In this document: one piece after another, positions 1 to 38,878 of the stretch
Layout: the number at the start of each line of letters is the position of its first letter
Numbering within the stretch: the first letter of the stretch is position 1
Assembly (NCBI GenBank): GCA_002367335.1
Contig: DFBI01000047.1
Location: forward strand, 1-39,264
DNA length: 39,264 nucleotides
From: Syntrophaceae bacterium UBA3084
GTDB taxonomy: Bacteria; Desulfobacterota; Syntrophia; Syntrophales; UBA6807
Direction of reading: 5' to 3'
Translations under genes and position numbers: made by a program
Notes under the pieces: generated by a model
Seen by the model: the letters and a program-made list of their open reading frames with translations, nothing else
Database searches by the model: none
What the model was told of the DNA's origin: nothing

Positions 1-206
1 CCTTATACTTTTTGGATGTACAATTCGGACATTTCTTTGAAAGAATGCTCATATAATCTACCTCTCAAAATTATAGGTGAAATAGGGTAGATTACATATA
101 ATCCATCATGTCAATATTGTCTACTGTTAATAAATCTTAATTAATATTAGCGGGTTACTCTCTATATCAAACTGAACCAGTACCCACGCAAAGGCGATAA
201 AGGGAA

Positions 207-244
207 ATTCAACCGGGGCCTTTTTCTTTTCTATTTCACCGGGG
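207..244. repeat. Two orphan copies of the 12-nt motif ATTYMACCGGGG (207-218 ATTCAACCGGGG; 233-244 ATTTCACCGGGG)
   Basis: The same 12-mers form the 3' arms of the nested hairpin elements at 5604-5652 and 5678-5722. No complementary 5' arm is visible upstream here, so these look like half elements. Confidence 0.6.
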
Positions 245-248
245 TGAC

Positions 249-309
249 CTCTGTCTTCTCTCTTCCCTCTTTTCCTTCCCCTTAATCCGTGTAATCTGCG
301 TAATCTGCG
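249..309. repeat. Degenerate polypyrimidine heptads (about 249-283) followed by 3 x 9-mer TAATCYGYG (283-309)
   Basis: Read directly: ctctgtc ttctctc ttccctc ttttcct tcccctt, then taatccgtg taatctgcg taatctgcg. Lies just downstream of the sqdB-like stop codon. Confidence 0.5.
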
Positions 310-328
310 GATCGTTTTTGGCAGCAAA

Positions 329-1567
329 TCATCCCCATTTAATTCCCTTGAAAATCACATCCCTCCGAATGTTTCCCTTAAACCTCTCAACCACCCGCAT
401 CATCCCTTCCAACACCTCATCCGTCAAATAATGCGGCTTCACTCCAAGCCCAATCAATCCCTGATAAGTAGGATTATAATAATGTTCTTCTGCCTCTTTT
501 CTTGGATTTTCCAAGTGGTCTATCTTTACCTGATATCCCAGCTTCCTTCCAACATCCTGCACCTTTTCAGCAAGTTCATTGGCACTGAAGGTCTCCATGA
601 TCTGGTTGAAAATACGGAGTTGTCCTTTCTTTGCAGGGGTCTCCGCAGCCTTATGCACGCACTGCAGGGTGTCATTGATATTCAAATACCCCCGGGTTTG
701 ACCTCCTTTTCCATAAACTGTCAACGGGTATCCCACAATGGCCTGAACAATGAAACGGTTTAAAATGGTTCCAAAAATCTCATCGTAATTAAATATCGTC
801 CTCAATTCATGGCTGTCGGCTCTTCCTGCTGTCCGACCTCTGACCTCCGACCTCTGACCACTGATCTCCGACTCATCGGTCTCCAACCCATAAACAGGTC
901 CCTGCATCAGGTCCGTAATCCGCAGATCCCACATGCGCACCCCAAACCACATCAGGTCTGTATCCATGATCTTCGTGGTATGGTAAAGGGAACTTGCCTG
1001 CCTCGGGAAAAGAAAGCGATCTTTCCTTCCTTTATGCTCAATATCAAGCCACCCTTCCTCAATATCAATATTAGGGGTTCCATACTCCCCCATGGTCCCC
1101 ACATGAATCACATGGGTATCTCGTGAGAAATCCCGGAGGGCGAACATCAGGTTATTGGTCACTAAAAGATTGTTCTGGAGCGTGATATTTGCGTATTTAT
1201 AATTGATCAGAGAGTAGGGCGCCGAAGGCTGTTCTGCATAGTGGATAACAGTCTCAGGAATACCGGAAAACTTATGATTGATAGACCATGAGTATTCAAA
1301 ATCGCCCTTGAATAGCGACCTCATTATTTCCGGGTCAGTCAGATCCCCAATCACCACCTTAATCTCTTTTCCCGTCAGTTCATTCCAAATCTTGGCCCGC
1401 TGAATCAAAGAGGGAACAGGATATAGCATTCCCACATCCAATTCCGTGCAGGCATTCCGACGGAAATAGTTGTCCACAACGGTTACATCGTAACCGCGCT
1501 TGGAAAAATACATGGCGGTTGGCCAACCAAGATATCCGTCACCGCCGAGAATCAGAATATGGCTCAC
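329..1567 (-). CDS. sqdB: UDP-sulfoquinovose synthase-like NAD-dependent epimerase/dehydratase (SQD1/SqdB family)
   Basis: 412-aa ORF with a GTG start preceded by AGGGGGG and a GGDGYLGW Rossmann N-terminus. Colinear with SQD1/SqdB as I remember the family (PVYG..TDE, FGT.LNRF.VQA.VG.PLTVYGKGGQTRGYL, NPR.EAEEHYYN blocks). Confidence 0.8.
   Translation of the reverse strand: MSHILILGGDGYLGWPTAMYFSKRGYDVTVVDNYFRRNACTELDVGMLYPVPSLIQRAKIWNELTGKEIKVVIGDLTDPEIMRSLFKGDFEYSWSINHKFSGIPETVIHYAEQPSAPYSLINYKYANITLQNNLLVTNNLMFALRDFSRDTHVIHVGTMGEYGTPNIDIEEGWLDIEHKGRKDRFLFPRQASSLYHTTKIMDTDLMWFGVRMWDLRITDLMQGPVYGLETDESEISGQRSEVRGRTAGRADSHELRTIFNYDEIFGTILNRFIVQAIVGYPLTVYGKGGQTRGYLNINDTLQCVHKAAETPAKKGQLRIFNQIMETFSANELAEKVQDVGRKLGYQVKIDHLENPRKEAEEHYYNPTYQGLIGLGVKPHYLTDEVLEGMMRVVERFKGNIRRDVIFKGIKWG
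812..865. repeat. Heptad-type repeat tract embedded in frame inside the sqdB-like CDS (encodes ISGQRSEVRGRTAGRADS)
   Basis: The + strand reads ...ctgtccg acctctg acctccg acctctg accactg atctccg..., the same CYGAYCT-type units as the 5723-6105 array. It corresponds to 18 extra residues between the conserved TDE and HE(E)LR positions of SQD1-like proteins. Confidence 0.65.
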
Positions 1568-1584
1568 TTCGTTCCCCCCTTTTC

Positions 1585-1829
1585 CAGATGACAGTGTCCG
1601 GATGACAGTTTTCAGATGACGGATGACAGACTACAGATGACAGACTACAGACTACAGATGACAGACGGCAGATGACAGATGACAGAAAGCAGACTACAGA
1701 TGACAGACTACAGACTACAGATGACAGACTACAGATGACAGACGGCAGATGACAGATGACAGATGACAGAAAGCAGACTAGAGATGACAGACTATAGATG
1801 ACAGACGGCAGATGATAGATGACAGAAAG
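1585..1829. repeat. Tandem heptanucleotide array, 35 units CAGANNN (CAGATGA, CAGACTA, CAGACGG, CAGAAAG)
   Basis: 245 nt in one unbroken 7-nt register. There is a higher-order 8-12-unit pattern, each block ending in CAGAAAG. It fills the leader between the four-helix-bundle stop (1832) and the sqdB-like start (1567). Confidence 0.95.
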
Positions 1830-1831
1830 CA

Positions 1832-2236
1832 TCAAGTGCTTCGGATAGAACCGTTATGGCGTTTGCAAAAGGATTCGGGATTTGCCATCATTTTGCCCAA
1901 CATTCGACCTATTTGCATGCATTTATTCATCAGATGGTTATGATCGTCGGCAGAAACGTACTTGCATGCCAAGGCTGTATCGAGCCAGTGCTGCGTCTCG
2001 GCTTGCTCGCCATCTGAATCTGAAAGTTTGCTGACAAAATGTGCTTGGTAGCGGCGTTTATGCCAGGCTTCGGCCAAATTAGCCCCGATAGAACGTGAAG
2101 ATCTCCGAATCTGATCCGTAAGAGAGAAAAGCTCTTCTTTCGAAAAACCCTTGGTCATTTCAAAAATCTCTTGCTGCAACGAAAATGCAGCCTGGTAAAC
2201 CTTCAAATCTCTAAAACTGCGAATCTTATCACCCAT
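1832..2236 (-). CDS. Four-helix-bundle protein (23S rRNA intervening-sequence protein family)
   Basis: The track ORF is 210 aa, but residues 1-76 are translated heptad array. ATG at 2234-2236 (M77) gives 134 aa with the family pattern F.DL.VYQ.A ... LTDQIRRSSRSIGANLAEA. Confidence 0.8.
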   Translation of the reverse strand: MGDKIRSFRDLKVYQAAFSLQQEIFEMTKGFSKEELFSLTDQIRRSSRSIGANLAEAWHKRRYQAHFVSKLSDSDGEQAETQHWLDTALACKYVSADDHNHLMNKCMQIGRMLGKMMANPESFCKRHNGSIRST

Positions 2237-2238
2237 GA

Positions 2239-2427
2239 CTGTCTTCCGTCCTCCGTCTTCCGCCCTCCGTCTTCCGTCCTCCGTCCTCTGTCTTCCGTCC
2301 TCCGTCCTCCGTCTTCTGTCTTCCGTCCTCCGTCTTCCGCCCTCCGTCTTCCGTCCTCCGTCCTCTGTCTTCCGTCCTCCGTCCTCCGTCTTCTGTATTC
2401 CGTCCTCCGTCCTCCGTCCTCCGCTCT
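2239..2427. repeat. Tandem heptanucleotide array, 27 units CYGTCYT (CCGTCCT, CCGTCTT, CTGTCTT, CCGCCCT)
   Basis: Strict 7-nt register starting 3 nt upstream of the four-helix-bundle ATG. Units 1-11 (2239-2315) are repeated perfectly as units 12-22 (2316-2392). The last unit contributes the stop codon of the CapD-like gene. Confidence 0.95.
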
Positions 2428-3503
2428 CACTCCGGCCAATACCTTTCAGCCGGATGCTCTTCAACCCGTTGCTGCAATAAGTTGTTTTCTCTCAAAAAGA
2501 GTTTCAATTCTGCCTTGCTCATGAAAGGTCCTTCTTCTGAAACATACGGCCGATTAACCGTTGAAGATAAGATATCCGGATAATCATAATCTATGTTTCG
2601 GTAAATCCCGCGAAAAGCAGGAAGGACAACAAAGTACTTTTTCAGCTCCATGGCCCGTCGCGTCTCTTCCTGGCTCATCAATTCCTCATAGAGTTTTTCC
2701 CCTGATTTCCTCCCCATCCCCACAACCTCAATATCTTCCGGTTTATGACCATAGATCGGAGCCAACTCTTCAACCATTACCATGGCCAGATCCGCAATCC
2801 TGATTATCGGCATCTTGGTAACAAAGACTTCACCACCGCGTGCCAGCTCAGCAGAATTGATCACCAGCTCCACCGCCTGCTCAATACTCATGATAAAGCG
2901 TGTCATATCCCTTTCCGTCAGCGTAAGCGGCCCACCTTTTTTTATCTGCTGTTGAAAAATAGGAATAACCGAGCCGCGCGATCCGAGAACATTGCCAAAA
3001 CGGGTTGATATAAAGATCAGCCCTTCACCTTTAAAGTTTGCATTGGCAGCGGTCATAAGTCGTTCGCCCATTAATTTTGATGTACCCATTACATTGGTCG
3101 GATTAACAGCCTTGTCCGAGCTTGTAAATATGACTCTCTCCACATTGTTTTCACAGGCGGCATAGATAATATTCTGAACACCGACAATATTGGTCCGCAC
3201 CGCCTCAAAAGGGGAACGCTCACACAGGATAACATGCTTAAACGCCGCGCAATGAAAAACAATGTCTACCCCTTTCATTTTGCGGCAAAGCTTATCCCTG
3301 TCGCGCACGTCAGCAAGAAAAAAACTGGCCTGCTTGTAATCTGAAAACCTCTGTTCCAAAAAGAAAAGTTCACTCTCATTATTATCAAGAGCTATCAATT
3401 CGGCTGGCTGACAATGCATCAATAACTGGTGCACCAGCTCTCGTCCCACAGTACCACATGCCCCTGTAACAAGTATCCGCTTGTCAGCAAAAAAATCTCT
3501 CAT
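2427..3503 (-). CDS. CapD/PseB/FlaA1-type polysaccharide biosynthesis protein (UDP-GlcNAc 4,6-dehydratase family, short soluble form)
   Basis: 358 aa with a TGACGTVG Rossmann motif and family-typical blocks (VFHCAAFKHV, FTSSDKAVNPTNVMGTSK, RFGNVLGSRGSVIP). Confidence 0.8.
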   Translation of the reverse strand: MRDFFADKRILVTGACGTVGRELVHQLLMHCQPAELIALDNNESELFFLEQRFSDYKQASFFLADVRDRDKLCRKMKGVDIVFHCAAFKHVILCERSPFEAVRTNIVGVQNIIYAACENNVERVIFTSSDKAVNPTNVMGTSKLMGERLMTAANANFKGEGLIFISTRFGNVLGSRGSVIPIFQQQIKKGGPLTLTERDMTRFIMSIEQAVELVINSAELARGGEVFVTKMPIIRIADLAMVMVEELAPIYGHKPEDIEVVGMGRKSGEKLYEELMSQEETRRAMELKKYFVVLPAFRGIYRNIDYDYPDILSSTVNRPYVSEEGPFMSKAELKLFLRENNLLQQRVEEHPAERYWPE

Positions 3504-3534
3504 TTTTATTTTTTATCCTTTGCTCTTGTCTCCC

Positions 3535-3604
3535 TGCCATCTGCGCTATGCCCCATGCGCTCTGCTCTATACTCTCTGCGCTATGCGCTACGCGTTCTGC
3601 GCTA
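3535..3604. repeat. Tandem heptanucleotide array, 10 units TGCGCTA-type
   Basis: tgccatc tgcgcta tgcccca tgcgctc tgctcta tactctc tgcgcta tgcgcta cgcgttc tgcgcta. Spans the gap between two CDSs and encodes the last residues (LAQNA) and stop codon of the epimerase. Confidence 0.9.
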
Positions 3605-4688
3605 AGAACCACAAAAACGTCTCCTCCAGTCCCTCTTCCAGCCCCCACTTCGGCTCAAACCCCAACATCCTCCTCGCCTTGGAAATATCGGAATAGTTCC
3701 GTTTCACCTCACCCTTCCGTTCGTTCTCATAGACGATCTCGCTTTTTCTCCCCTGATGTTTTTCCGCCAGCCGATTCAAAACCTCTGCCACCTCTCCAAC
3801 CGTATGCTCCCGATGAGTAGCGGTCTGAAATACCTCCCCTCCAATATTCGGCCTTTCCAGGGCCAGCAAAATAGCATCCACCAGATCTTCAATGTAGATA
3901 AAATCCCTTGTCTGGTTCCCGTCACCATAAATGGGCAGCGTCTCCCCAGCCATAATATGCCTGATAAACTTGGCCACCACACTGCCCTTATGGCTCGACC
4001 TCGGCCCATACACGTTCCCAAAACGCAACGCCACAGTCTCAAGACCAAACGACCCGTAGTAAGCCGAGCAATAAGCCTCCCCGCAAAGTTTACTCGCCCC
4101 GTATGGAGATATCGGCCGCGGGACCATCTCCTCATGGATGGGTGGTTCCTGTTCGCCAAGAGGCGCACCCGAAGACGCAAACACAAACCGCTTCGCACCA
4201 TTCTTTCGTGCTGCCTCCAAGAAGTTCACCGTCCCAATGACATTGGCCATGCAGTCTGCCATAGGGTCTTCAATGGACGGCATCACACCTGTATTTGCCG
4301 CAAGATGCACTACAGCATCCATACCACGACAGGCCTTGACCGCCAGGTCCTCATCCCGTATATCTCCCACCACCAGTTCAACTTCAGATGACCGAGGACC
4401 GTGGACAGAAGACGGATCTGCTTTTCTTATTGAATTTTTCGTGGATTGATCTGGTTCTTGTTTATTTGTACATCGGAATTTTGAATTTGTTTCGAGATTC
4501 GGGTTTCGGATTTCGGGTTTGACAGTCTGATCCACTTCACTGAATGTACAGACAGCAGCCAGATCCTCCCTTTTCCCCACCGTGAGATTGTCTATTACTC
4601 TTATTCGGTGTCCATCACCCACATCCATGAGCCGTCTTATGAGGTTAACACCAATAAATCCGCATCCCCCTGTAACCAAAATGTTCAA
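3588..4688 (-). CDS. NAD-dependent epimerase/dehydratase (extended SDR, UDP-hexose 4-epimerase-like) carrying a roughly 48-aa insert
   Basis: 366 aa with a TTG start 9 nt after GGAGG, a GGCGFIG Rossmann motif and the SPYGASK catalytic YxxxK. An insert lies between VIDNL...REDL and VVGDIRD. Confidence 0.8.
   Translation of the reverse strand: MNILVTGGCGFIGVNLIRRLMDVGDGHRIRVIDNLTVGKREDLAAVCTFSEVDQTVKPEIRNPNLETNSKFRCTNKQEPDQSTKNSIRKADPSSVHGPRSSEVELVVGDIRDEDLAVKACRGMDAVVHLAANTGVMPSIEDPMADCMANVIGTVNFLEAARKNGAKRFVFASSGAPLGEQEPPIHEEMVPRPISPYGASKLCGEAYCSAYYGSFGLETVALRFGNVYGPRSSHKGSVVAKFIRHIMAGETLPIYGDGNQTRDFIYIEDLVDAILLALERPNIGGEVFQTATHREHTVGEVAEVLNRLAEKHQGRKSEIVYENERKGEVKRNYSDISKARRMLGFEPKWGLEEGLEETFLWFLAQNA
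4390..4525. repeat. Two heptad tracts inside the epimerase CDS: GACNGNN x4 (4390-4417) and ATTTTGA/TTCGGRT-type (about 4476-4525)
   Basis: gaccgag gaccgtg gacagaa gacggat ... ttcgaga ttcgggt ttcggat ttcgggt ttgacag, separated by an AT-rich spacer. Together they encode the extra loop of the enzyme. Confidence 0.7.
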
Positions 4689-4706
4689 AATGTGAATTAC
4701 CTCCTG

Positions 4707-4748
4707 TAACTATTAACTGATAACCAATAACGATTAACCAATAACCAA
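4707..4748. repeat. Tandem heptanucleotide array, 6 units TAACNNN (TAACTAT TAACTGA TAACCAA TAACGAT TAACCAA TAACCAA)
   Basis: Read directly. Lies immediately upstream of the epimerase RBS and includes one exact TAACTGA unit. Confidence 0.9.
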
Positions 4749-4753
4749 CAACT

Positions 4754-4866
4754 TCACTCCCCCGGCCTAAACAACACCGTCTGCACTGTCTTCAGCAAAA
4801 TAAACAAATCCAAAAAAATAGACTGATTCTGTATATAGAACAATTCATATTCCAGCTTCTCAAAAA
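4754..4866 (-). pseudogene. 3'-terminal remnant (about 37 codons plus stop) of a bacterial sugar transferase / PGT gene
   Basis: The minus-strand translation FEKLEYELFYIQNQSIFLDLFILLKTVQTVLFRPGE* aligns with the C-terminus of the intact PGT (FEKLQYDLYYVQNQSILFDLFIILKTVQTVIFRPGV*). There is no upstream body. Confidence 0.85.
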
Positions 4867-4868
4867 GC

Positions 4869-5111
4869 CTACCTACTGCTTGCATTCAAAATCGTTATTC
4901 CTACAATTTTATCATCATCTGTTCTAATTAACACATCGTCATCCATCTCAACGGTCTTCTTTGCTCTTTGTGGCCTTCGAAAACTCAGATACAGAACATC
5001 CGCCTCTTTATCGTAGTCAACCCAAATATGCTTGACCGAAAGCCTTGCCAATTCTGATGATAGCCCTAAGCAAGAATCGATCATTTCCTTATTTACTGAC
5101 TGCATCGCCAT
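4869..5111 (-). CDS. DUF2283-family small protein (putative antitoxin-like partner)
   Basis: 80 aa with the core VDYDKEADVLYLSF typical of DUF2283. Overlaps the upstream small ORF by 19 nt. Confidence 0.6.
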   Translation of the reverse strand: MAMQSVNKEMIDSCLGLSSELARLSVKHIWVDYDKEADVLYLSFRRPQRAKKTVEMDDDVLIRTDDDKIVGITILNASSR

Positions 5112-5395
5112 ATTGGCACCCCCTTTGGTTTTTTATCCAGAAAATAGGCTGTGATGACAAAGCCATCTTTTTTTGAAATTTCTCTGTAAACGACTACCAG
5201 CCATTTATCTCTCCCTATATTCCTCGTCGCCTTCAGACTACCCTTATTGCCTCTGATTATGAATTCCGGGTTTTCAACCACTTCCATGACTTCGAAATAG
5301 TAGCTGGCTAAGTCATCGTGGTTTTCAGTAATATGGAACCATCTTTCATACGTTAAACGTATCGGTACACCATTAACAGAATAGGCTATCTCCAT
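5093..5395 (-). CDS. DUF4258-like small protein (putative toxin-like partner)
   Basis: About 100 aa from ATG 5395 (the track starts at TTG 5413). The pattern H.TE.H...ENP.F......VVVY......VITAYF resembles DUF4258 proteins, which commonly pair with DUF2283. Confidence 0.45.
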   Translation of the reverse strand: MEIAYSVNGVPIRLTYERWFHITENHDDLASYYFEVMEVVENPEFIIRGNKGSLKATRNIGRDKWLVVVYREISKKDGFVITAYFLDKKPKGVPIWRCSQ

Positions 5396-5444
5396 ATTAA
5401 GTTCTCTTCCCAACTTCTCATCTCATCCTCTTCTTTTCCCACCT

Positions 5445-5499
5445 TCCCTGTCTCGTTGAATTCCGCTTTGCGGACGTCCGAAGGGCTATTCAACTGGGA
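5445..5499. repeat. Nested hairpin element, copy 1
   Basis: Outer stem TCTC-GTTGAAT (5451-5461) pairs with ATTCAAC-t-GGGA (5488-5499). Inner hairpins are TCCGC-ttt-GCGGA (5462-5474) and GTCC-gaa-GGGC (5476-5486). Confidence 0.7.
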
Positions 5500-5505
5500 T
5501 CACGT

Positions 5506-5526
5506 TCTGTCCTCTGTCCTCTATTT
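5506..5526. repeat. Short heptad tract TCTGTCC TCTGTCC TCTATTT
   Basis: Read directly. Follows hairpin copy 1. Confidence 0.6.
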
Positions 5527-5540
5527 CTTTTGTTTTTCAT

Positions 5541-5575
5541 TCGACGTTGGACGTTCGACGTTCGATGTTGGACGT
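5541..5575. repeat. Tandem heptanucleotide array, 5 units TYGAYGT (TCGACGT TGGACGT TCGACGT TCGATGT TGGACGT)
   Basis: Read directly, in strict 7-nt register. Confidence 0.9.
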
Positions 5576-5603
5576 TCATCCTTTTTCTTTCCGTCCTCCT
5601 TGT

Positions 5604-5652
5604 CCCGTTGAATTGCTCCGCCAGGAGCACCCCGAAGGGGATTCAACCGGGG
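5604..5652. repeat. Nested hairpin element, copy 2
   Basis: Outer stem CCC-GTTGAAT (5604-5613) pairs with ATTCAAC-c-GGG(G) (5641-5652). Inner hairpins are TGCTCC-gcca-GGAGCA (5614-5629) and CCCC-gaa-GGGG (5630-5640). Confidence 0.75.
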
Positions 5653-5677
5653 TGTCCTCCGCCCTCTGCCCTCCTTG

Positions 5678-5722
5678 CCCCGTGAAATTCACGAAGTGAC
5701 AGCGTAGTGCATTTCACCGGGG
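5678..5722. repeat. Nested hairpin element, copy 3
   Basis: Outer stem CCCC-GTGAAAT (5678-5688) pairs with ATTTCAC-c-GGGG (5711-5722), with two compensatory changes relative to copies 1 and 2. Inner hairpin is TCAC-gaa-GTGA (5689-5699). Confidence 0.75.
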
Positions 5723-6105
5723 TGTCCTCCGTCCTCCGTCTTCCCGACTTCTGATCTCTGATCTCTGATCTCCGATCTCTGATCCCCGTCATCCGACCTC
5801 TGTCCTCTGTCATCTGACATCTGACCTCTGTCTTTTCCGTCCTCCGTCCTCTGTCTTCCGTCCTCCGTCCTCTGTCCTCTGTGTCTTCCGTCCTCCGTCC
5901 TCTGTCCTCCGTCCTCTGTCCTCCGTCCTCTGTCCTCCGTCCTCTGTCCTCCGTCCTCCGTCCTCTGTCATCCGTCCTCTGATCTCCGTCCTCTGTCCTC
6001 CGTCCTCTGATCTCCGATTTCCGTCCTCTGTCCTCCGTCCTCTGTCCTCTGTCATCCGTCCTCTGATCTCCGTCCTCTGTCCTCTGTCCTCTGACCTCCG
6101 TCCTC
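5723..6105. repeat. Large tandem heptanucleotide array, about 54 units YCYGWYM (CCGTCCT, CTGTCCT, CTGATCT, CCGATCT, CTGACCT ...)
   Basis: About 380 nt with 7-nt periodicity and a few 2-nt phase slips (near 5834 and 5880). Ends 6 nt before the stop codon of the intact PGT. It generates the spurious 101-aa RTEDGG ORF at 5810-6115. Confidence 0.95.
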
Positions 6106-6111
6106 TACGCT

Positions 6112-7494
6112 TCACACCCCCGGCCTGAAAATCACTGTCTGCACTGTCTTAAGGATAATGAACAGATCAAACAAAATAGACTGGTTTTGGACATAATAGA
6201 GGTCATACTGAAGCTTCTCAAATTGACCTTTTTTGGAACCAGCATAATCTCCCCGAACTTGGGCCCAGCCGGTCAGGCCCGGTTTTACGGTAAATCTAAG
6301 TCTATAATAAGGAAATTCCTTTGCCAGCATATCTGCAACTTGTTTACGAATGGGCCGAGGACCAACAAAACTCATGTCCCCTTTTAGTATATTAAAAAAT
6401 TGCGGGAGCTCATCAAGGCGGCTCTTCCGCAGAAATCTGCCGACCTCGGTTATGCGCGGGTCATCCTCGCTTGCCCACTTAGGACCGGTCAGTTTCTCGG
6501 CATTATCGATCATGGTGCGGAACTTGATTAGGGTAAAAGGCCGCTCATTTTGACTTAAACGTTCCTGCTTAAAAAATGCCGGCCCCTTTGAGGTCAGTTT
6601 GATGGCCAGAGCGGCAAGCAACATCAGGGGACAAGAAAGGACTATCCCGATAAGAGCAAAAACCTTGTCAATAATCTTCTTTATCTTTCTATAGACGTCC
6701 GGGTTGAAAATGTCGCCCTGGTTACGGAACAGAAACCAGGAATCCGTAACTCTGGTTACCGGAACCTTGCCAGTCAGCGTCTCATAGAACAGGGGAGCGT
6801 CATAGATAGCTACACCGGCAAATCGTAGGTCTAAAAGCTCCTTCCTCAGTAATGGGAGATTCTTTAGCCGGTCGGCAACAACTAATGTATTAGTTTGACT
6901 CTCTCTCACAAAATCGGACAGGCTTTTGGCTGATTTTGAGCCGTTAATGCAGATAGCTCCGGGGTTCTCGGAATAATCACCAATGGCGGTCATAATACCG
7001 ATATCCGAATTCGGCACAAGCGACTTGAGATCCTCAATAATGGGACTTTCACCAATAAGAAGGATTTTTTGCTGGTTAGCGCCATTTTGCAAAAAGACCC
7101 TGAAGAGAAGTTTTCGCCAGCAGAATAAAAGAGGGATGACAAAAAGGATGTAAAGTAAAATAACCTTTCTTCCAATTACAATATTTGGCAGAAAAAAAAA
7201 GGAAAGAAAGGCAATAATTGCGGCAGTAACTAAAACGGCTAAGGCGATATTTGACAAAAGCCTTACATTGTGTCGCCAACGGCTTTCATTATAGAGTTCA
7301 AATACATAGAAAATAACCGGGCAGGAAAAAAGCCATAAAACAATCACCCAATTGACCCTTGATAGGACAAATTCAAAGCTAAAAAGTTGGGAAGCAATAA
7401 CCTTGATATACACCGCCATAAAAAAGGCACTGAACACCAACAGAACGTCACCAAGCAGAACGAGTATCTTTTTATAGTTGCTATAAATTGCCAT
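6112..7494 (-). CDS. Polyprenyl-phosphate glycosyl-1-phosphate transferase (large bacterial sugar transferase, WbaP/EpsB-like initiating enzyme)
   Basis: 460 aa with N-terminal hydrophobic helices and a central Rossmann-like segment. The C-terminal sugar-transferase domain shows PFTLIKFRTM, DELPQFFNILKGDMSFVGPRP and KPGLTGWAQV. Confidence 0.9.
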   Translation of the reverse strand: MAIYSNYKKILVLLGDVLLVFSAFFMAVYIKVIASQLFSFEFVLSRVNWVIVLWLFSCPVIFYVFELYNESRWRHNVRLLSNIALAVLVTAAIIAFLSFFFLPNIVIGRKVILLYILFVIPLLFCWRKLLFRVFLQNGANQQKILLIGESPIIEDLKSLVPNSDIGIMTAIGDYSENPGAICINGSKSAKSLSDFVRESQTNTLVVADRLKNLPLLRKELLDLRFAGVAIYDAPLFYETLTGKVPVTRVTDSWFLFRNQGDIFNPDVYRKIKKIIDKVFALIGIVLSCPLMLLAALAIKLTSKGPAFFKQERLSQNERPFTLIKFRTMIDNAEKLTGPKWASEDDPRITEVGRFLRKSRLDELPQFFNILKGDMSFVGPRPIRKQVADMLAKEFPYYRLRFTVKPGLTGWAQVRGDYAGSKKGQFEKLQYDLYYVQNQSILFDLFIILKTVQTVIFRPGV

Positions 7495-7539
7495 ATGACA
7501 TTTAACGAATGGAACTTACTTTAATGCACTCGCCATAGG

Positions 7540-7659
7540 TTAAGTTGTGGAGAAAGAAATGGAATACGAGCATACAAACACGGCGAAGACAATTAGCGCA
7601 TCAACCACTAATAACAGGAATTGCTTTTGCTTATTCGGGCTTTTCAGGAAAATGTTCAT
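7540..7659 (-). pseudogene. 5' fragment of a PGT gene (first 34 codons, then out of homology and a stop)
   Basis: 7558-7659 matches 11127-11228 at 95 of 102 positions by my count. It translates to MNIFLKSPNKQKQFLLLVVDALIVFAVFVCSYSI, against MNVFLKSPNKQKQFLLLMIDALIVFAVFVCSYSI in the truncated PGT. Confidence 0.85.
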
Positions 7660-7854
7660 CTTTTCCCAAATAACTTTTCAGGCTCTTGCTGTATTACATT
7701 CATAAAAGGCCTCCACGAATGTATGAAAAGAACACATGCTGAAAAGGCGCCGGTATTTGCTGTGATGATTAAGTGTTGGTCTTTCTTTATAACGTCGGTT
7801 GAGGCGAAATTCACTTCAGCGGATTTTGGAGGTCCCCCCACCGGATTCATCTGA

Positions 7855-8784
7855 TTAGTATACTGCCTCTTTATACCATTGATAGGTTTTTGCTATTCCT
7901 TCACTGAGACCGGTCTTTGCCTCCCAGCCTAAATCTGTTAGCTTACTCACATCAAGTAGTTTCCTCGGGGTACCGTCCGGTTTTGACGTGTCAAATTTCA
8001 ATCCCCCTTCATATCCGGCTATTTCCTTTATCAACAAGGCAAGCTCTCTTATGGAGATATCTTTCCCCGTCCCTACATTGATGACCTGATCCTCATCATA
8101 ATTCTCCATCAAAAAGACGCAGGCATCGGCAAGGTCATCAATATACAAAAACTCCCTTCGAGCGCTCCCTGTTCCCCATATCTTTACGAAGGGTTCTTTG
8201 TTCATTTTAGCTCCATGGAATTTTCTTAAAAGGGCCGGTAAAGCATGTGACGTTTCCAGGTTAAAATTATCGTTAGGGCCATAAAGATTTGTCGGCATGA
8301 CAGAGATAAAATTGGCTCCGTATTGCCTGTTGTAAGACTGGCACATCTTGATTCCGGCAATCTTGGCTATGGCATAGGGTTCATTTGTGGGCTCTAACTT
8401 GCCGTCCAGGAGATACTCTTCCTTCATCGGTTGAGGGGAAAGCCTGGGATAGATGCAGGAACTACCTAAAAACAGTAACTTTTTTACCCCGCAGACATAC
8501 GCGTAATGGATTATATTGCTTTGAATCATGAGATTATCGTAGAGAAATTCAGCAGGGTATGTGTTGTTTGCCAGGATACCACCCACCTTGGCGGCAGCCA
8601 GAAACACATAATCAGGGCGCTCATGCTCGAAAAAGGAATTTACATCCGCCTGGAGGCGCAGATCCAGCTCCTTGCTGGTCCGCGTAACAAGATTGTTATA
8701 CCCCAATGCCCTGAGCTTTCTTGCAATGGCAGAACCAACAAGTCCTCGATGGCCTGCAACATAAATTTTGCTGTTTTGTTCCAT
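7855..8784 (-). CDS. fcl: GDP-L-fucose synthase (GDP-4-keto-6-deoxymannose 3,5-epimerase/4-reductase)
   Basis: 309 aa with family blocks [43 protein letters not shown] and [11 protein letters not shown]. Confidence 0.92.
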
Positions 8785-15412: not shown

Positions 15413-15575
15413 GAACTTCCCTTCCTAAACACCAATCCGCCTGTCCTAACAAAAAAGGCCTTCAGGTGCATAGGACGGGACAAGCATCTAAAACCATTGC
15501 TTCCAAACCATAAAATAGCGTCATGCGGGTCAATACTGTTTACTTCCGTGAAATTATTTTTCCCGATGCGCTACT

Positions 15576-17063: not shown

Positions 17064-17201
17064 TGCGCACGGAATCCTTTTTCACAGGAACTATAGAACT
17101 TAACTCTTGAAATTTGCCGGCAAAAAAGCTCATTTCCTGTACATCAATCCCAACCCGTCTTCAATAATAACAGCCACGTCCAGGCGAGTCATCACCCCGT
17201 A

Positions 17202-18467: not shown

Positions 18468-18515
18468 AGTTTGATATTCTCTTCGCGTTTATATATCTTC
18501 AAAATGAGAATAAGA

Positions 18516-22137: not shown

Positions 22138-22239
22138 AAAACCCCTTACAAGTCAAACTGTTCTATATATTTCTCTTCTGTCACTTCCTTAGGTATAATT
22201 ACGATCTTTCAAATTTTGATCAGAAGCAGTATTATCAGA

Positions 22240-24031: not shown

Positions 24032-24117
24032 ATATCAGTTAATTACCTTTCATTTTGAGAACAGGGAGATGAGATAAAATTTAATATTGAACTTCCAAAA
24101 ATTGGTCACATGTTTCT

Positions 24118-24283
24118 CATACCAGGTAACCGTTCACACTCCCTGGCAGCCGACAAGCTTTTGCAGGGTTTCAACCGCGGACAAGGTTGCACCAAAAGGC
24201 GTATTCTCAACGGATTGTGCTTTGAAACCCGAAAAAGGCTGTTGGCTGTCAGGGGGGGGGGAAGTGAATGATTACATACCAGG
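24118..24283. mobile_element. MITE-like palindromic element (148 bp, 24127-24274) flanked by 9-bp direct repeats CATACCAGG (24118-24126 and 24275-24283)
   Basis: The left arm TAACCGTTCACACTCCCTGGCAGCCGACAAGCTTTTGCAGGGTTTCAA aligns with the reverse complement of the right arm TAATCATTCACTTCCCCCCCCCCTGACAGCCAACAGCCTTTTTCGGGTTTCAA. A 47-nt centre separates the arms. No ORF. Confidence 0.75.
24252..24261. repeat. Homopolymeric G10 tract (C10 on the transcribed strand) inside the right arm of the MITE-like element
   Basis: Counted directly (tca ggg ggg ggg gaa in the + frame of the track ORF). The equivalent position in the left arm has only CCC. Confidence 0.9.
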
Positions 24284-24298
24284 ATATGCATTAGCAAT

Positions 24299-25834: not shown

Positions 25835-25846
25835 AAGAGAGAATCT

Positions 25847-31327: not shown

Positions 31328-32497
31328 TTAACTATCCATTTTAATATCGTAAAATTCTTTCTTCAGAATATTTTTCAGATCAAAATGTCTGATGGTTTCC
31401 TTGATAGTCTTTGCTGTGTTTTCTCCCTCATAGGGATTCCGTAAGTTCTGGAGGCTTTGTCTAAATTCGGTGGAGAGCGCTTGCTTAATCGATTTAACAA
31501 TTGCTTCCTTTGCTGGTGAGCAGTTAATGACACTTTTGGTCTGAATACGCCCTTTTTGCCTGTCGCCTATGTTAACAGTAGGGACCTTAAAGCTTGGCGC
31601 CTCTACGATTCCACTTGATGAATTGCCAACTACGGCTTCTACATGTTTCATGGCGCTCAAATACCGGAGCTGACCCATTGATGTAAACGAAATGGCAGCG
31701 TTTGTCTCTGTTGTCACATATTCATCAATCATCTGGTTAATAATCCGGCCTTCAGTGTCCGCATTGGATTTTGTAAAAATCACACGTAAACCGTCAATTG
31801 TATCTATGGCATCAAGAAGATTTTGGAATTGCGTCTGAGCAGTCGCTTGTTCGAGAGTTACAGGGTGATAAGTGACAAGAATGTATTGCTGTCCAAGAGA
31901 GAAACCGATTTCTTTTTCCAGATCCTCTCGCGACAGAAGCGGCAGTTTTCGAATATTTTCGATTCCGAGGGCACCCACATTAAAGACCCTGTCCGGCGAT
32001 TCACCCAGTTGAATGACCCGTTTTCTATATTCATCTGTAGCGGTAAAATGGAGATGACTCATCTTGGTAATTGAATGCCGGAAGGCTTCGTCAACTGCTC
32101 CCCGCGTGGTTTCCCCGCCGTGTATATGGCCAATTGGGATGCGAGAGACACAAGCCGCACCGGCAGCGCAAAAGATCTCAAACCGGTCACCCAAGAGGAC
32201 CAGAATATCAGGTTTCAACTCATCATAGGCCTCTGCAAAACCGATCATGCCAAGGCCCATCGATTTTGAAATGCCTACTGGTGTATCTGAAGAGAGGAGC
32301 ATCTCAATTTTTTTATTAATCTTAAAGCCGTCTTCTTCTATCTGCCTATATGTCAGTCCAAACTCTGGCGAAAGATGCATACCCGTTGCGATAATCTGGA
32401 GTTCAAGGTCAGAATCCGCCTGGATTGCCTTCATCAGCCAGTAAAACAGGCCGTATTCCGCGCGGGTTCCGGTGACAATGCAGATTTTGCGTCTCAT
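31328..32497 (-). CDS. neuC: Hydrolysing UDP/GDP-N-acetylhexosamine 2-epimerase (NeuC/LegG family)
   Basis: Start moved to ATG 32495-32497 (MRRKICIVTGTRAEYG, the canonical NeuC N-terminus). The 11 extra residues in the track ORF come from a TTG inside the heptad tract. Confidence 0.88.
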   Translation of the reverse strand: MRRKICIVTGTRAEYGLFYWLMKAIQADSDLELQIIATGMHLSPEFGLTYRQIEEDGFKINKKIEMLLSSDTPVGISKSMGLGMIGFAEAYDELKPDILVLLGDRFEIFCAAGAACVSRIPIGHIHGGETTRGAVDEAFRHSITKMSHLHFTATDEYRKRVIQLGESPDRVFNVGALGIENIRKLPLLSREDLEKEIGFSLGQQYILVTYHPVTLEQATAQTQFQNLLDAIDTIDGLRVIFTKSNADTEGRIINQMIDEYVTTETNAAISFTSMGQLRYLSAMKHVEAVVGNSSSGIVEAPSFKVPTVNIGDRQKGRIQTKSVINCSPAKEAIVKSIKQALSTEFRQSLQNLRNPYEGENTAKTIKETIRHFDLKNILKKEFYDIKMDS

Positions 32498-32501
32498 TTC
32501 G

Positions 32502-33533
32502 TTAGCTTGTGGTTCGTAGTTGGTAACCAATCAGCTCGTCAACTTTGTAATCTCTGTCTGCCTTCCGCCCAATCACCTCATCCCATCGCATTGGACTGAT
32601 GCCTGTTCCGGGCCGCTTTGTGGTCAGATTTTCCTCGGTGAATTCTTCGCCTTCTTTAATGTCTCTTGCTGCCACAATGCTCTTTCGAGCGACGGGTTTG
32701 TTTTTCAGTTCCGAAGGCGACGGCTTTTTTATTTCGCTGCCAAGAGCTTTTTCGATATTGTGGATAGCCCGAACCATGGCTTTGAGTTCATCCGGTTCAA
32801 GAGAGGCTTTGTGATCCGGGCCTTCCATATTCTTGCTCAGAGTGAAATGCTTTTCGATGATCGAAGCTCCCATGGCAACGGCTGCAACAGGGACCTCAAT
32901 GCCTAATGTATGATCAGAATAACCGACTCGAATGCCGGGGGAGGCGGCCTTGATTGTGAGCATAGCCCTTAGATTTACATCCTGCATGGGTGTTGGATAC
33001 TCAGTATTGCAATGCAGGACTGCGATCTTATTAAGCGTAGTTCCAGCAGTAACCAATATATCAAGAGCAGCTTCGATCTCGCCTAAATCCGCCATGCCGG
33101 TGGAAAGAATTATCTCTTTTTTGAGAATGCCGATTTTTCGCAGATAGGGCAGGTTAGTAATCTCGCCTGATGGAATCTTGAAGGTCTCCAACCCCAGATT
33201 GTGCAAGAGGTCGATACTTTCCAGATCAAACGGACTGGAGAGAAACTGTATATCTTTCTGTCTGCAATAGGCGATGAGTTCCCTGTGAGCATCAGCATCC
33301 AGTTCAAGCCTTTTGATCATCTCGTACTGTGATTCGGCTCTGTCAGTAGTCTGTCTCTGATAATCAGCCTTTTGGGCCGACTTGCATACTACTTTGTCCG
33401 CCAAAAACGTCTGGAATTTTACGGCATCTGATCCAGCATCTACGGCAGCATCAATCATTTTTTTAGCCAGCTCCAGGCTTCCATTGTGATTTACGCCTGC
33501 TTCGGCAATGATGAAGGTTCTTTTATAGTTCAT
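32502..33533 (-). CDS. neuB: Nonulosonate (N-acetylneuraminate/legionaminate) synthase, NeuB/LegI family
   Basis: 343 aa with FIIAEAGVNHNGS, KFQTF and the C-terminal SAF/antifreeze-like domain (FTEENLTTKRPGTGISP). Confidence 0.92.
   Translation of the reverse strand: MNYKRTFIIAEAGVNHNGSLELAKKMIDAAVDAGSDAVKFQTFLADKVVCKSAQKADYQRQTTDRAESQYEMIKRLELDADAHRELIAYCRQKDIQFLSSPFDLESIDLLHNLGLETFKIPSGEITNLPYLRKIGILKKEIILSTGMADLGEIEAALDILVTAGTTLNKIAVLHCNTEYPTPMQDVNLRAMLTIKAASPGIRVGYSDHTLGIEVPVAAVAMGASIIEKHFTLSKNMEGPDHKASLEPDELKAMVRAIHNIEKALGSEIKKPSPSELKNKPVARKSIVAARDIKEGEEFTEENLTTKRPGTGISPMRWDEVIGRKADRDYKVDELIGYQLRTTS
32504..32531. repeat. Heptad tract AGCTTGT GGTTCGT AGTTGGT AACCAAT between neuB and neuC
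   Basis: Read directly. The units are related to the 33534-33554 tract. It encodes the last residues (YQLRTTS) of NeuB. Confidence 0.7.
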
Positions 33534-33596
33534 AGCTGGTAGCTCGTAGTTGGTAGCAAAAGAAGTGAAAGCTCAAAGATGAAAGATAGAAGAATT
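33534..33596. repeat. Nine heptads in one register: AGCTGGT AGCTCGT AGTTGGT AGCAAAA GAAGTGA AAGCTCA AAGATGA AAGATAG AAGAATT
   Basis: Read directly. It begins the nucleotide after the neuB start codon and runs into the acetyltransferase CDS, encoding its last residues (SSIFHL) and stop codon. Confidence 0.85.
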
Positions 33597-37905: not shown

Positions 37906-38214
37906 TAGATGCCAGGAATCATCAGCCTTGTCACTCTGCGGTGTCTTGCACCAAGTTAATCCTCGACTTAAACCTGGCGAAAGGAAGAAACTGCCCCACG
38001 GGTTCGAGACCCAAGGCAGGGACCTTCTCTTCCGCTAGAATGGCTGGTTTTACCGATAAAAGAAAGCTTTTCATTTTTTTAACTTTGAACATACAAGGCA
38101 AAATCACCACTGCCCAAAATTCTTTCATCTCCCTTTTCCCATTCTTCCTTCTTTCTCCCCAATAGATTCCTTTTGTTCCCGCCCGCGCTTCGGACCAATC
38201 CACCACCCGATAAA

Positions 38215-38249
38215 GCTCAAAGCTGAATGCTGAATGCTCAAAGCAACTA
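38215..38249. repeat. Heptad tract GCTCAAA GCTGAAT GCTGAAT GCTCAAA GCAACTA
   Basis: Read directly. The last unit contains the stop codon of the four-helix-bundle pseudogene. Confidence 0.8.
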
Positions 38250-38450
38250 AGATGAAGAGATCGAATTTATGAGACCCTTTATCATGGACACTATTTCTTT
38301 ACCATGCATTTCGAGTTGAGAATAACGATCATCAGATATCCATTTCTTTCTCCGGAAAATTTCGAGCAAGGTCATTGTTTCATATAATGACCCCCTTGAT
38401 ATGTACAAATATTGCACAAACTCCTTTTTTGAAAAACGACCTTGCCCTCT
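38247..38450 (-). pseudogene. Four-helix-bundle (23S rRNA IVS protein family) gene, C-terminal half
   Basis: The minus frame reads RGQGRFSKKEFVQYLYISRGSLYETMTLLEIFRRKKWISDDRYSQLEMHGKEIVSMIKGLINSISSS*, matching the family from the (NIAE)GQGR motif onward. It starts directly after the GIY-YIG stop codon. Confidence 0.75.
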
Positions 38451-38705
38451 TTACCCGGTTAAATAAGATTTGAGTCGCTTTTTTAGAAACATTCTGCCAT
38501 GATATGTCTTTAGATATTTTTCACGTCTTGTTGCATCTTCTCTACTAAGACAGGCTTCATAATAGATCAAATTGAAAGGTGCTCTTTTTTTAGTAGAATC
38601 CACAAGGCCCTTGTTATGTCGCTCAAATCTTAACTTGAGTTCTTTTGTGAATCCAATATAGAATTTTCCATCCTTTTGGCTTTGCAAGACATAAGTGTAA
38701 TACAT
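38451..38705 (-). CDS. Small GIY-YIG nuclease-family protein (UPF0213/YhbQ-like)
   Basis: 84 aa from ATG 38705. Shows YYTYVLQSQKDGKFYIGFT (GIY...YIG) plus the R...H.N and E..L motif positions. Confidence 0.85.
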   Translation of the reverse strand: MYYTYVLQSQKDGKFYIGFTKELKLRFERHNKGLVDSTKKRAPFNLIYYEACLSREDATRREKYLKTYHGRMFLKKRLKSYLTG

Positions 38706-38717
38706 CACATATTCAAG

Positions 38718-38878
38718 CTATTTAACTGGGCAGGTATTCATAGATACGCTGGTGGAACTCGCTTCTATTTGCTCCAAGACGCTGTATCTGGGGGACGGAG
38801 TTAGTTTAATAGTTTAATATGTAACGTCCATCATTTTCTTTTATATTTAATACGTTGAAATAATTCATACCGTTCCAT
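38718..38878 (-). pseudogene. Four-helix-bundle gene, decayed N-terminal half
   Basis: One frame reads ...KLTPSPRYSVLEQIEASSTSVSMNT, then leaves homology (CPVK*). Compare FSLTDQIRRSSRSIGANLAEA in the intact copy. Upstream there is an 8-bp tandem duplication (AGTTTAAT x2, 38803-38818) that shifts the frame, and an in-frame TGA. Confidence 0.6.

Follow-up and report, generated by a model that had tools for sequence, protein, structure and literature searches.

The 39,264-nt stretch of DNA examined here (contig DFBI01000047.1 of Syntrophaceae bacterium UBA3084, hereafter called the window) is a surface-glycan and nonulosonic-acid locus, as judged from the Pfam domains of its genes. A GDP-mannose dehydratase, the product of a housekeeping-type gene, is 97% identical to one from a deltaproteobacterial metagenome-assembled genome, on which basis an uncultured member of Desulfobacterota is the probable source. 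Every gene in the window lies on the minus strand, and arrays of tandem heptanucleotide units are found at gene boundaries, between co-directional genes. An earlier note made from the sequence had placed the arrays at these boundaries, and the gene map bears this out. Because all genes are on the minus strand, units given below in the mRNA sense are the reverse complements of the units listed in that note. One interval, at 1585-2427, holds two long arrays that are mutually inverted around a gene for a protein of the S23p (23S_rRNA_IVP) four-helix-bundle family. This arrangement of arm, open reading frame (ORF) and arm is referred to as the cassette, and both the gene between the arrays and the complementarity of the arrays are additions to what the earlier note described.

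Arrays with a period of 7 nt, or with periods of the multiples 14, 21 and 63 nt, were sought throughout the window using Tandem Repeats Finder (TRF). Between positions 249 and 6105, TRF reports arrays at 835-872, 1585-1826, 2241-2423, 3542-3604, 4489-4520, 4707-4752, 5506-5522, 5540-5577, 5656-5674 and 5723-6106. Their copy numbers include 34.6 at 1585-1826, 9 at 3542-3604, 13.1 copies of a 14-nt unit at 2241-2423 and 27.1 copies of a 14-nt unit, or about 54 heptamers, at 5723-6106. Additional arrays beyond this span are located at 33533-33557, 33566-33587 and 38212-38244. The tracts previously listed were thus recovered by TRF or by direct reading of the letters: GACNGNN units at about 4385-4416 are legible in the sequence, and the tract at 32504-32531 falls under the TRF score and can be read by eye (TTACCAA CTACGAA CCACAAG CTAACGA). 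The tract at 835-872 was absent from the earlier list.

Seven is also the only tandem period in excess within the window, as had been proposed. A self-match scan found 11 period-7 tracts totalling 806 nt, whereas random sequences generated by a first-order Markov model (matched in dinucleotide frequencies) yielded 0 such tracts. For periods 2-20, the scan of the window found nothing at non-multiples of 7 except one 9-mer. In agreement with the earlier observation, the AT-rich block from about 15.4 to 27 kb is free of period-7 arrays.

Arrays of the same type are present in long-read contigs of metagenome-assembled genomes, in one complete chromosome and in finished plasmids of cultured cyanobacteria, and therefore the arrays are not in kind an assembly artefact, which the earlier note had named as a possible refutation. 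Independent short-read contigs of the window locus are 100% identical across the short arrays and break or misjoin within the long ones. For example, one contig (L133, positions 1-500; L numbers are our labels for contigs, loci and records) fuses the 2239-2427 array with the 5723-6106 array, and three others (L001, at positions 1-71, L002 and L003) stop inside long arrays. The copy numbers of the long arrays in the window are therefore uncertain. Features of the window that involve heptamer arrays are collected in Table 1.

Table 1. Heptamer arrays and associated features of the window, with units in the mRNA sense.
Feature	Position	Strand	Content or context	Basis
Upstream arm of cassette	2239..2427	-	ARGACRG, ~27 units, purine-rich	TRF, pattern matches, predicted pairing with 1585-1769
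134-aa ORF, S23p / 23S_rRNA_IVP four-helix-bundle family	1832..2236	-	Loop between arms	PF05635, TIGR02436, PDB 2RLD and 2GSC
Downstream arm of cassette	1585..1829	-	TCTGTCA/TCTGCCG/TCTGTAG, ~35 units, pyrimidine-rich, 63-nt higher-order period	TRF, predicted pairs
Largest array, putative solo arm	5723..6106	-	~54 ARGAYRG units	TRF, inverted-repeat pairs I1-I11
Spacer	5425..5722	-	Three palindromic hairpins at ~5440-5500, 5604-5650, 5679-5720	Sequence, motif search in window and related loci
TTGGTTA/TCAGTTA array, putative solo arm	4707..4752	-	6 units; 5' leader, ~20 nt upstream of TTG start 4688	TRF, family search
In-frame 39-aa insertion in epimerase gene 3588..4688	4380..4532	-	CCGAAAY (4489-4520) and TCYGTCY-type (4385-4416)	BLASTP, TRF, inverted-repeat pairs I11-I18
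TAGCGCA-type array	3535..3604	-	~10 units; overlaps last codons of 3588..4688, before CapD-like start 3503	TRF, family search
In-frame 16-aa insertion in SQD1-like epimerase gene 329..1567	814..872	-	GGTCAGA/GGTCGGA units	TRF, BLASTP
Region downstream of 329..1567	190..310	-	9-mer repeat 283-309; purine-rich tract 249-280; hairpin half-sites 208-217, 235-244	TRF, motif search
Second four-helix-bundle gene, degenerate, split by GIY-YIG ORF	38212..38807	-		tblastn with divergent four-helix-bundle proteins, Pfam, TRF
Short arrays abutting NeuB ATG (33533)	33533..33596	-	TTCTTCT/ATCTTTC, then CTACCAA CTACGAG CTACCAG	TRF, sequence
CTACNAR-type heptamers	32497..32531	-	Overlap last NeuB codons, end at likely true ATG (32496) of UDP-GlcNAc 2-epimerase gene	Sequence, Pfam

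The cassette occupies exactly the interval from the stop codon of a CapD-like gene (2427..3503) to the ribosome-binding site of the next gene, which is SQD1-like (329..1567), and it is co-oriented with both. Its upstream arm begins a few nucleotides past the CapD-like stop, and its downstream arm ends just short of the Shine-Dalgarno sequence and GTG start (1567) of the SQD1-like gene. The 134-aa protein, which is encoded on the same strand as all flanking genes, matches PF05635 with E=1e-32 (112.6 bits versus a cut-off of 33.8) and TIGR02436 with 103 bits (cut-off 24), as well as the structures 2RLD and 2GSC, and its ATG at 2236 agrees with the N-termini of homologues. A mechanically called ORF of 210 aa (1832..2464) is an artefactual extension of this gene into the stop-free array. 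One strand of the ARGACRG array has no T and the other has no A, such that the array is open in all six reading frames, and automatic calls consequently lengthen the 134-aa protein to 210 aa both in the window (1832-2464) and in L001 (3708-4340). Many metagenomic homologues are likewise over-called, at 140-182 aa. In practical terms, such arrays break short-read assemblies and cause gene callers to extend or fuse ORFs.

The arms of the cassette are predicted to pair extensively. Sense RNA corresponding to 1560-2470 has a predicted folding energy of -369 kcal/mol, compared with -294 +/- 8 for shuffled sequences (z -9.3), whereas the antisense strand folds to only -265 kcal/mol. The predicted structure is a stem of about 150 bp in which helices of roughly 6 bp alternate with single purine-purine mismatches and whose loop contains the ORF. 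Among its 152 arm-to-arm pairs are 22 of the G.U type, and the stem holds a single A.C mismatch. We considered the G.U and A.C counts as proof of selection at the level of RNA and rejected this argument, given that an antisense control attributes much of the excess across loci to the folding algorithm.

Relatives of the 134-aa protein are abundant, with more than 4,700 at E <= 1e-10, and amino acid identity ranges from 71% to 96% among the 120 matches listed. Close homologues occur across phyla (87% identity in Fermentibacteria, 68% in Verrucomicrobia) and in several thousand metagenomic clusters. From 80 metagenomic loci fetched for the presence of a relative, we retained 60 that have distinct ORF sequences and 150-nt flanks on both sides. 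Period-7 tracts reside on both sides of the gene in 40 of these 60 loci, and 29 of the 40 carry a purine-rich tract upstream and a pyrimidine-rich tract downstream. When the upstream unit is compared with the reverse complement of the downstream one, 5.2 of 7 positions agree, as opposed to 3.15 of 7 for direct comparison. Similarly, the mean duplex energy between the two flanks is -91 kcal/mol, versus -64 when the downstream flank is shuffled and -71 when it is reversed. Of 73 neighbouring genes whose orientation could be called, 67 point the same way as the cassette, and the host genes are diverse, including MutS, DnaE, ThiC and many glycan genes.

Perhaps more importantly, the units of the two arms change together. 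Divergent four-helix-bundle genes are flanked by different yet complementary arm units, such as GGAGTGA / TCACTCC (L138), GAATGTC / GACATTC (L160) and GGTCATG / CCYATRA (L172), and further complementary pairs are GAAATCC / GGATTTC (L126), ACAGAGG / CCTCTGT (L022) and GTTATTG / CAATAAC (L218). These pairs show covariation at the level of whole arms. The arrangement also extends to plasmids, where 27 records match the protein. All but one (26) are cyanobacterial (Nostoc, Calothrix and others), and these are the classical taxa for repeats of the short tandemly repeated repetitive (STRR) type. Among 12 plasmid records inspected, complementary arms bracket the gene in seven, with pairs such as GGGTGTA / TACACCC (Calothrix) and GGAGCAG / CTGCTCC (Nostoc), and three have partial arms or none. 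Arms also accompany the gene NPUN_RS36250 on plasmid pNPUN02 of Nostoc punctiforme PCC 73102.

Comparison of two relatives of the source organism reveals that the cassette is exchanged as a unit. The CapD-like and SQD1-like proteins that flank the cassettes of L218 and L126 are 99.4% and 99.0% identical, respectively, and yet no similarity could be detected between the four-helix-bundle genes that they enclose, each of which is bordered by matching arms of its own. The points at which the two loci cease to agree lie 7 nt past the upstream stop codon and about 25 nt into the downstream gene. Arm, ORF and arm have therefore been swapped together between flanks that are 99% identical. This exchange counts against the view of the earlier note that a period-specific process operates rather than the spread of one repeat family, since the arrays travel with the cassette. 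Likewise, to say that intergenic space is built from such arrays was an overstatement. The 17.4 kb available from the sister genome L218 contain four heptamer arrays, every one of them beside one of its two four-helix-bundle genes, and 8.8 kb of non-glycan genes (cobalamin and transport) are without any.

Arm length varies between near-identical strains, as the earlier note had suggested might be found. Four assemblies with flanks of 99.9-100% identity carry, respectively, six copies, three copies, one copy and one copy of a 68-nt higher-order unit in the upstream arm, and in a second set of loci (97-99% identical) the upstream arm ranges from 20 to 270 nt, although collapse of short reads may add to these differences between assemblies.

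A single heptamer family dominates the arrays of the window. Read in the mRNA sense, 2239-2427 consists of ARGACRG units and 5723-6106 of ARGAYRG units, and 1585-1829 is of the complementary type (TCTGTCA/TCTGCCG). If the small tracts of this kind at 249-280, 835-872, 4385-4416, 5506-5526 and 5656-5674 are counted, the ARGACRG family and its complement make up about 0.95 kb of the approximately 1.15 kb of heptamer sequence within 249-6105. The claim of many unrelated units therefore holds in part: several distinct families do exist, but the three most extensive patterns that were reported (CAGANNN, CYGTCYT and YCYGWYM) belong to one.

To our scan for four consecutive CYGTCYT units, restricted to one genome per species, at least 120 contigs responded. 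They derive from Bacteroidota, Planctomycetota, Verrucomicrobiota, Omnitrophota, Desulfobacterota, Actinomycetota, Atribacterota, Gammaproteobacteria (including Betaproteobacteria-type lineages such as Accumulibacter and Gallionella) and others, such that the family is present in more than 15 phyla among the matches listed. Short hairpins of a purine-rich array followed by a pyrimidine-rich one, without an ORF, account for 22 of the 120 genome loci, 3 have a four-helix-bundle gene, and the remainder are solo arrays. When two arrays are neighbours, the purine-then-pyrimidine order outnumbers the reverse order by 23 to 5. Four-helix-bundle genes near these arrays were sought in a single pass from clean seeds, because an iterated hidden Markov model had drifted onto translations of the arrays and was dropped. 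Two simple rules were rejected on these data. Not every array derives from an adjacent four-helix-bundle gene, given that only 3 of the 120 genome loci have one, and a strict orientation rule relative to neighbouring genes reduces to a weak bias (20 sense/sense versus 6 anti/anti) with many flanks uncallable.

The sole plasmid match from outside the cyanobacteria links the cassette to a known type of genetic element. In Azospirillum lipoferum 4B (L233), the four-helix-bundle ORF is located inside a 23S ribosomal RNA (rRNA) gene, which is identified by the Rfam model LSU_rRNA_bacteria with 514 bits and which is interrupted in a hairpin loop at model position ~1218. This element is a true intervening sequence (IVS) of 23S rRNA that carries a four-helix-bundle ORF. 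Its arms (GAGGACG GATGACA GAGGACG GAGGACA upstream, TCCGTCC TCTGTCT TCTGTCA TCCGTCT downstream) are of the same heptamer family as the two arms of the window cassette, and its predicted fold is similarly stable (z -9.8). In Coxiella, Leptospira and other bacteria, the S23p ORF of such elements is sense-oriented in the loop of a stem made by terminal inverted repeats, RNase III excises the element, and the sequence ahead of the ORF start is rich in A and G (AGAAGA) (PMC4990558).

The window cassette shares with the rRNA IVSs of Coxiella burnetii, Leptospira, Xanthomonas and A. lipoferum 4B the ORF family (PF05635/TIGR02436), a sense ORF in the loop of a stem (here predicted) formed by complementary termini, and an AG-rich 5' arm. 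It differs in its host, which is a protein-coding operon (between the CapD-like and SQD1-like genes) rather than 23S rRNA, where the known elements occupy helix 45 and also helices 9 and 25. It also differs in its arms, which are tandem heptamers of about 190-245 nt instead of inverted repeats of about 28-35 bp, and in its stem, which is mismatched every 7 nt, unlike those of rRNA IVSs. Cleavage of the window stem by RNase III would be expected by analogy. The ORF-less purine-then-pyrimidine hairpins might in turn parallel the ORF-less intervening sequences of enterobacteria.

We consider it probable that the dominant heptamer family of the window constitutes the two arms of an IVS-type cassette that resides in an operon transcript and whose stem would be cut by RNase III. 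The polycistronic mRNA would present, in order, a purine-rich heptamer arm, the S23p four-helix-bundle gene and a complementary pyrimidine-rich arm, and the two arms are predicted to pair as a long imperfect stem with the ORF in its loop. RNase III could then cut this stem, which would separate upstream from downstream operon RNA and release or silence the RNA of the cassette. Excision of this kind would uncouple the cassette RNA from the flanking cistrons, and thus an insertion inside an operon could be tolerated. Being tandem repeats, the arms could pair in many registers. They presumably lengthen and shorten through slippage or unequal exchange, which would explain both the higher-order periods and the variation in length from strain to strain. 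The arrays at 5723-6106 and 4707-4752 would be solo or remnant arms, and the tracts at 4380-4532 and 814-872 would represent arm sequence trapped in coding loops. The very short leader arrays near 33.5 kb and 32.5 kb, which adjoin start codons, appear to form a class of their own.

Several observations weigh against this explanation. The metagenomic loci that were counted are not phylogenetically independent, and the sense strand is more stable than the antisense strand in only 39 of the 60 (p=0.006), with 679 versus 550 G.U pairs. An asymmetry this modest leaves room for an inverted repeat that matters at the DNA level. In two of the 12 plasmid records (L226 and L234), the heptamer arrays that flank the gene are direct and not complementary, and one plasmid case has 8-nt units. 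The 384-nt array at 5723-6106 has no equal-length partner nearby, and the TAGCGCA, ACGTCSA and CTACCAR arrays have neither a complementary partner in the window and related loci nor a cassette. Among the matches listed, a four-helix-bundle gene was found within the 8 kb or less that was fetched in only 3 of the 120 loci selected for CYGTCYT, and the repeat family is thus far more widespread than the gene. Finally, nothing in the analysis explains why the unit is 7 nt long.

If cassettes of the IVS type are indeed accommodated in operons and removed at the RNA level, they would be a bacterial counterpart of an intron without ligation and would expose a hidden layer of operon processing. A broader proposal can be offered tentatively. 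S23p cassettes with heptamer arms may be pan-bacterial, selfish 'operon intervening sequences', the same element as in 23S rRNA, that occupy intercistronic spacers in glycan, cas, mutS, dnaE and other operons and are tolerated through excision by RNase III. Their arms, ORF-less hairpins and solo remnants might then be the source of a large share of STRR-type repeats in cyanobacteria, Desulfobacterota and other groups, and the pentameric protein may act on the repeats.

The strongest competitor to the IVS-type reading, which we regard as the less likely of the two, holds that the arms are terminal inverted repeats of a mobile, foldback-type cassette and that the RNA stem is a by-product. Such an element would move by transposition, hairpin-dependent recombination or template switching, and the complementarity of its arms would serve this mobility or result from it. 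Homologues of 70-96% identity (among the matches listed) in several thousand metagenomic clusters and different phyla are what a mobile element should produce, the modest strand asymmetry across loci is accommodated as well, and a transposon origin has been considered in the IVS literature (PMC4990558). The gene has also been invaded twice by a GIY-YIG homing-type ORF (see below), which fits a multicopy mobile target. Replacement of the whole cassette between 99%-identical flanks points in the same direction, but the breakpoints of that exchange lie in the flanking genes' own sequence and resemble homologous exchange rather than precise insertion. Moreover, the cassette carries no transposase or integrase. 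Co-orientation in 67 of 73 cases and an exact fit between stop codon and ribosome-binding site would not be expected of an element that acts only as DNA, and the 22 G.U pairs against a single A.C mismatch in the window stem likewise favour a role for RNA.

It is unlikely, in our estimation, that the arrays act as single-stranded RNA or DNA platforms bound by a protein whose subunits each read about 7 nt, and that they so tune the translation or stability of adjacent genes. Candidate binders would be proteins of the cold-shock or S1 type or else the pentameric product of the four-helix-bundle gene, and the direct arrays on both sides of the gene in L226 and L234 would fit a gene product that recognizes repeats. 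Comparable suggestions have been published for the TAACTGA repeats of Beggiatoaceae (PMC4679880) and for heptamers at Nostoc recF/recO (bioRxiv 10.1101/2022.06.06.494920), and short arrays do abut start codons in the window (4707-4752, 33533-33560 and 32497-32531). However, the units are too diverse for a single sequence-specific binder, and the long arrays would, according to the predicted fold, form a duplex with one another.

We think it improbable that the tracts are ordinary simple-sequence repeats, born by slippage with an intrinsic 7-nt bias (a proposal made for many bacterial genomes) and neutral or weakly deleterious, whose adjacency to four-helix-bundle genes is incidental. Slippage and unequal exchange typically leave higher-order periods and differences in copy number, most CYGTCYT arrays elsewhere have no adjacent four-helix-bundle gene, and the part of PMC4679880 that summarizes Mrazek et al. 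2007 describes an excess of heptanucleotide repeats across many genomes. Slippage nevertheless does not predict reverse-complement flanks (seen in about 30 of the 40 metagenomic loci and in 7 of the 12 from plasmids), a joint change of unit on both sides of a gene, one unit family recurring in more than 15 phyla, or array-free spacers elsewhere in the sister genome. Still less probable are contingency switches that vary the phase of the surface polysaccharide through expression or reading frame: the locus makes a surface glycan, array length is polymorphic and a one-unit change in either of the two coding-sequence tracts would shift the frame, but those two tracts are degenerate and do not differ among four independent assemblies, the arrays that do vary in length lie between cistrons, where 7 nt have no effect on frame, and the same cassettes adjoin mutS, dnaE, thiC and cas genes.

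The IVS-type reading also invites comparison with repeats described elsewhere, and the earlier note had named two kinds that prove to be fair leads, although neither the canonical STRR units nor tandem exact TAACTGA was encountered. The STRR sequences of heterocyst-forming cyanobacteria resemble the window arrays in their head-to-tail 7-nt units, several families, mostly intergenic location and strain-variable copy number, but their hosts are cyanobacterial and the window host belongs to Desulfobacterota. Their canonical units are CCCCAGT, TTGGTCA and CAACAGT. None of the three forms an array in the window, where TTGGTTA (4707-4752) is one base removed from TTGGTCA. STRR repeats form a hairpin between the co-transcribed hupS and hupL genes in cyanobacteria (PMC2670836). 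No link between STRR sequences and four-helix-bundle genes or IVS elements was found in the literature that could be searched.

The TAACTGA repeats of marine Beggiatoaceae are short heptamer arrays just before start codons, as in the window, and they are mixed with other heptamers in some genomes, with horizontal spread suspected (MacGregor 2015, PMC4679880). Membership would call for at least two tandem exact forward units within a few nucleotides of a start codon. The window has a single exact unit, on the plus strand, next to a gene on the minus strand, and its neighbours are TAACCAA, TAACGAT and TAACTAT, such that the array is better described as TAACNNN. Unlike those of Beggiatoaceae, the window arrays are dominated by another family (ARGACRG) in complementary pairs. 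The TAGCGCA, ACGTCSA and CTACCAR arrays do resemble the leader arrays described for Beggiatoaceae and Nostoc.

Foldback elements, miniature inverted-repeat transposable elements (MITEs) and repetitive extragenic palindromes with their mosaic elements (REP/BIME) likewise have inverted arms (built of short tandem repeats in foldback elements), ORF-less derivatives and intergenic positions within operons. In contrast to these, the cassette has no known transposase, its arms surround a conserved non-transposase gene and its orientation follows the host transcription unit. The Avd protein of diversity-generating retroelements belongs to the same four-helix-bundle fold family as the window protein, which scores under both family cut-offs (PF22296, 32.6 bits versus 40; NF033474, 35 bits versus 80). 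The scanned ORFs of the window include no reverse transcriptase domain and no template/variable repeat pair was found, and hence the cassette is not assigned to these retroelements.

Genes of the 23S_rRNA_IVP family have been reported inside cas operons and interpreted as an 'association' with cas loci (PMC3936711). This association may simply reflect insertion of cassettes between operon genes. An example is plasmid pPg_01 of Pseudanabaena galeata (L234, 46268-46627), where a four-helix-bundle gene is situated between cas6 and cas4 with GCTAAAA x15 upstream and GCCAAAA x12 downstream. These arrays are direct, and the record is therefore an exception to the inverted-arm rule.

Heptamer repeats, STRR hairpins between co-transcribed genes, S23p IVSs of rRNA and 23S_rRNA_IVP genes in cas operons were all known already. 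The literature searched holds no account of four-helix-bundle genes bracketed by complementary tandem-heptamer arms, and none of a single arm family shared by intervening sequences of rRNA and cassettes carried in operons. What is new here is an IVS-type element outside rRNA whose arms are built of repeats. STRR-type heptamer repeats were recognized around 1990 and have, to our knowledge, found no use other than in fingerprinting. Two old puzzles, namely the role of these heptamers and the nature and spread of S23p IVSs, thus become a single testable question.

The remaining tracts of the window vary in their relation to the cassette. The largest array directly abuts the stop codon of a sugar transferase gene (6112..7494) and shares partial complementarity with 1585-1829 and with 4385-4416. 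Beyond it lie three palindromic elements, short arrays (GGACAGA x3 at 5506-5526, ACGTCSA x5 at 5540-5577 and a tract at 5656-5674) and a toxin-antitoxin-like gene pair. The fold of this spacer (5425-5735) is not significantly more stable than those of shuffled sequences (z -1.65), and a permissive Rfam scan of 5380-5760 produced a match at chance level only. Across the whole window, Rfam at gathering score gave no match and no rRNA, and ARAGORN gave no transfer RNA. Predicted promoters and terminators in 1-8000 are not more numerous than in shuffles, and the arrays were not seen to mark the boundaries of transcription units. On the plus strand at 5548-5590, the antisense of the ACGTCSA array (TYGAYGT) makes a 14-bp hairpin with a T-run behind it; this site is terminator-like but may be a chance match because such sites are no commoner in the region than in shuffles.

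The palindromic elements form a family of 34-69 nt with conserved ends (CCGGTKRAAT...ATTYMACSGG) and variable interiors that contain mini-hairpins with UUCG-type tetraloops. In addition to the three spacer sites and one at 208-244, members are present in L125, L126, L128 (three identical copies), L132, L134, L136, L142 and L151, often directly after a heptamer array, and they have no Rfam match. Integron attC sites were considered for these hairpins and rejected: the GTTGAAT...ATTCAAC ends place core-like heptamers in the order opposite to RYYYAAC...GTTRRRY, with AAC/GTT on the loop side.

The toxin-antitoxin-like pair (4869..5413) is accompanied downstream, at 4753-4884, by a degenerate duplicate, about 75% identical, of the 3'-terminal part of the sugar transferase gene (Bac_transf, 6110-6235). 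This copy travels with the pair (about 94% nucleotide identity) into different neighbourhoods in L125, L128 and L130-L132, which suggests cassette exchange by recombination in the 3' end of the gene. The TTGGTTA family of the adjacent leader array recurs in L218 as the complementary pair GTTATTG / CAATAAC around a four-helix-bundle gene.

Arrays do reach into coding sequence, as the earlier note had stated, in the form of the two in-frame insertions of 39 and 16 aa. The former is missing from a 327-aa sister orthologue and the latter from a 396-aa one, and these degenerate tracts are thus lineage-specific relative to the sister genome. Beside the CCGAAAY tract of the longer insertion, it may be noted that GAAATCC is an arm unit in L126.

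The second four-helix-bundle gene of the window comprises an N-terminal part (38721-38807), a GIY-YIG ORF (38451-38708) and a C-terminal part (38250-38447), with a GCTTTGA/GCATTCA array (38212-38244) directly after its stop codon. The GIY-YIG ORF splits the gene at the identical place in the window (38250-38807) and in L218 (2186-2857), just past a conserved S-x-x-x-N motif, and both N-terminal fragments end in ...CPVK*. The insert looks like a homing-type element that targets four-helix-bundle genes.

The array-free block at 15400-27000 is low in GC (0.30-0.39, compared with about 0.45) and encodes a Wzx-like flippase, glycosyltransferases, an asparagine synthase and a heparinase-like protein. 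The block has the look of a serotype-specific core that the glycan locus acquired by horizontal transfer. Farther along, an ORF for a PIN-domain toxin is in frame with that of a DegT-family aminotransferase, such that both are called as one 543-aa ORF (34180-35811), and an 80-aa ORF (35789-36031) lies just upstream. These PIN and 80-aa ORFs are another toxin-antitoxin pair between operon genes, and the 543-aa fusion is possibly mis-called.

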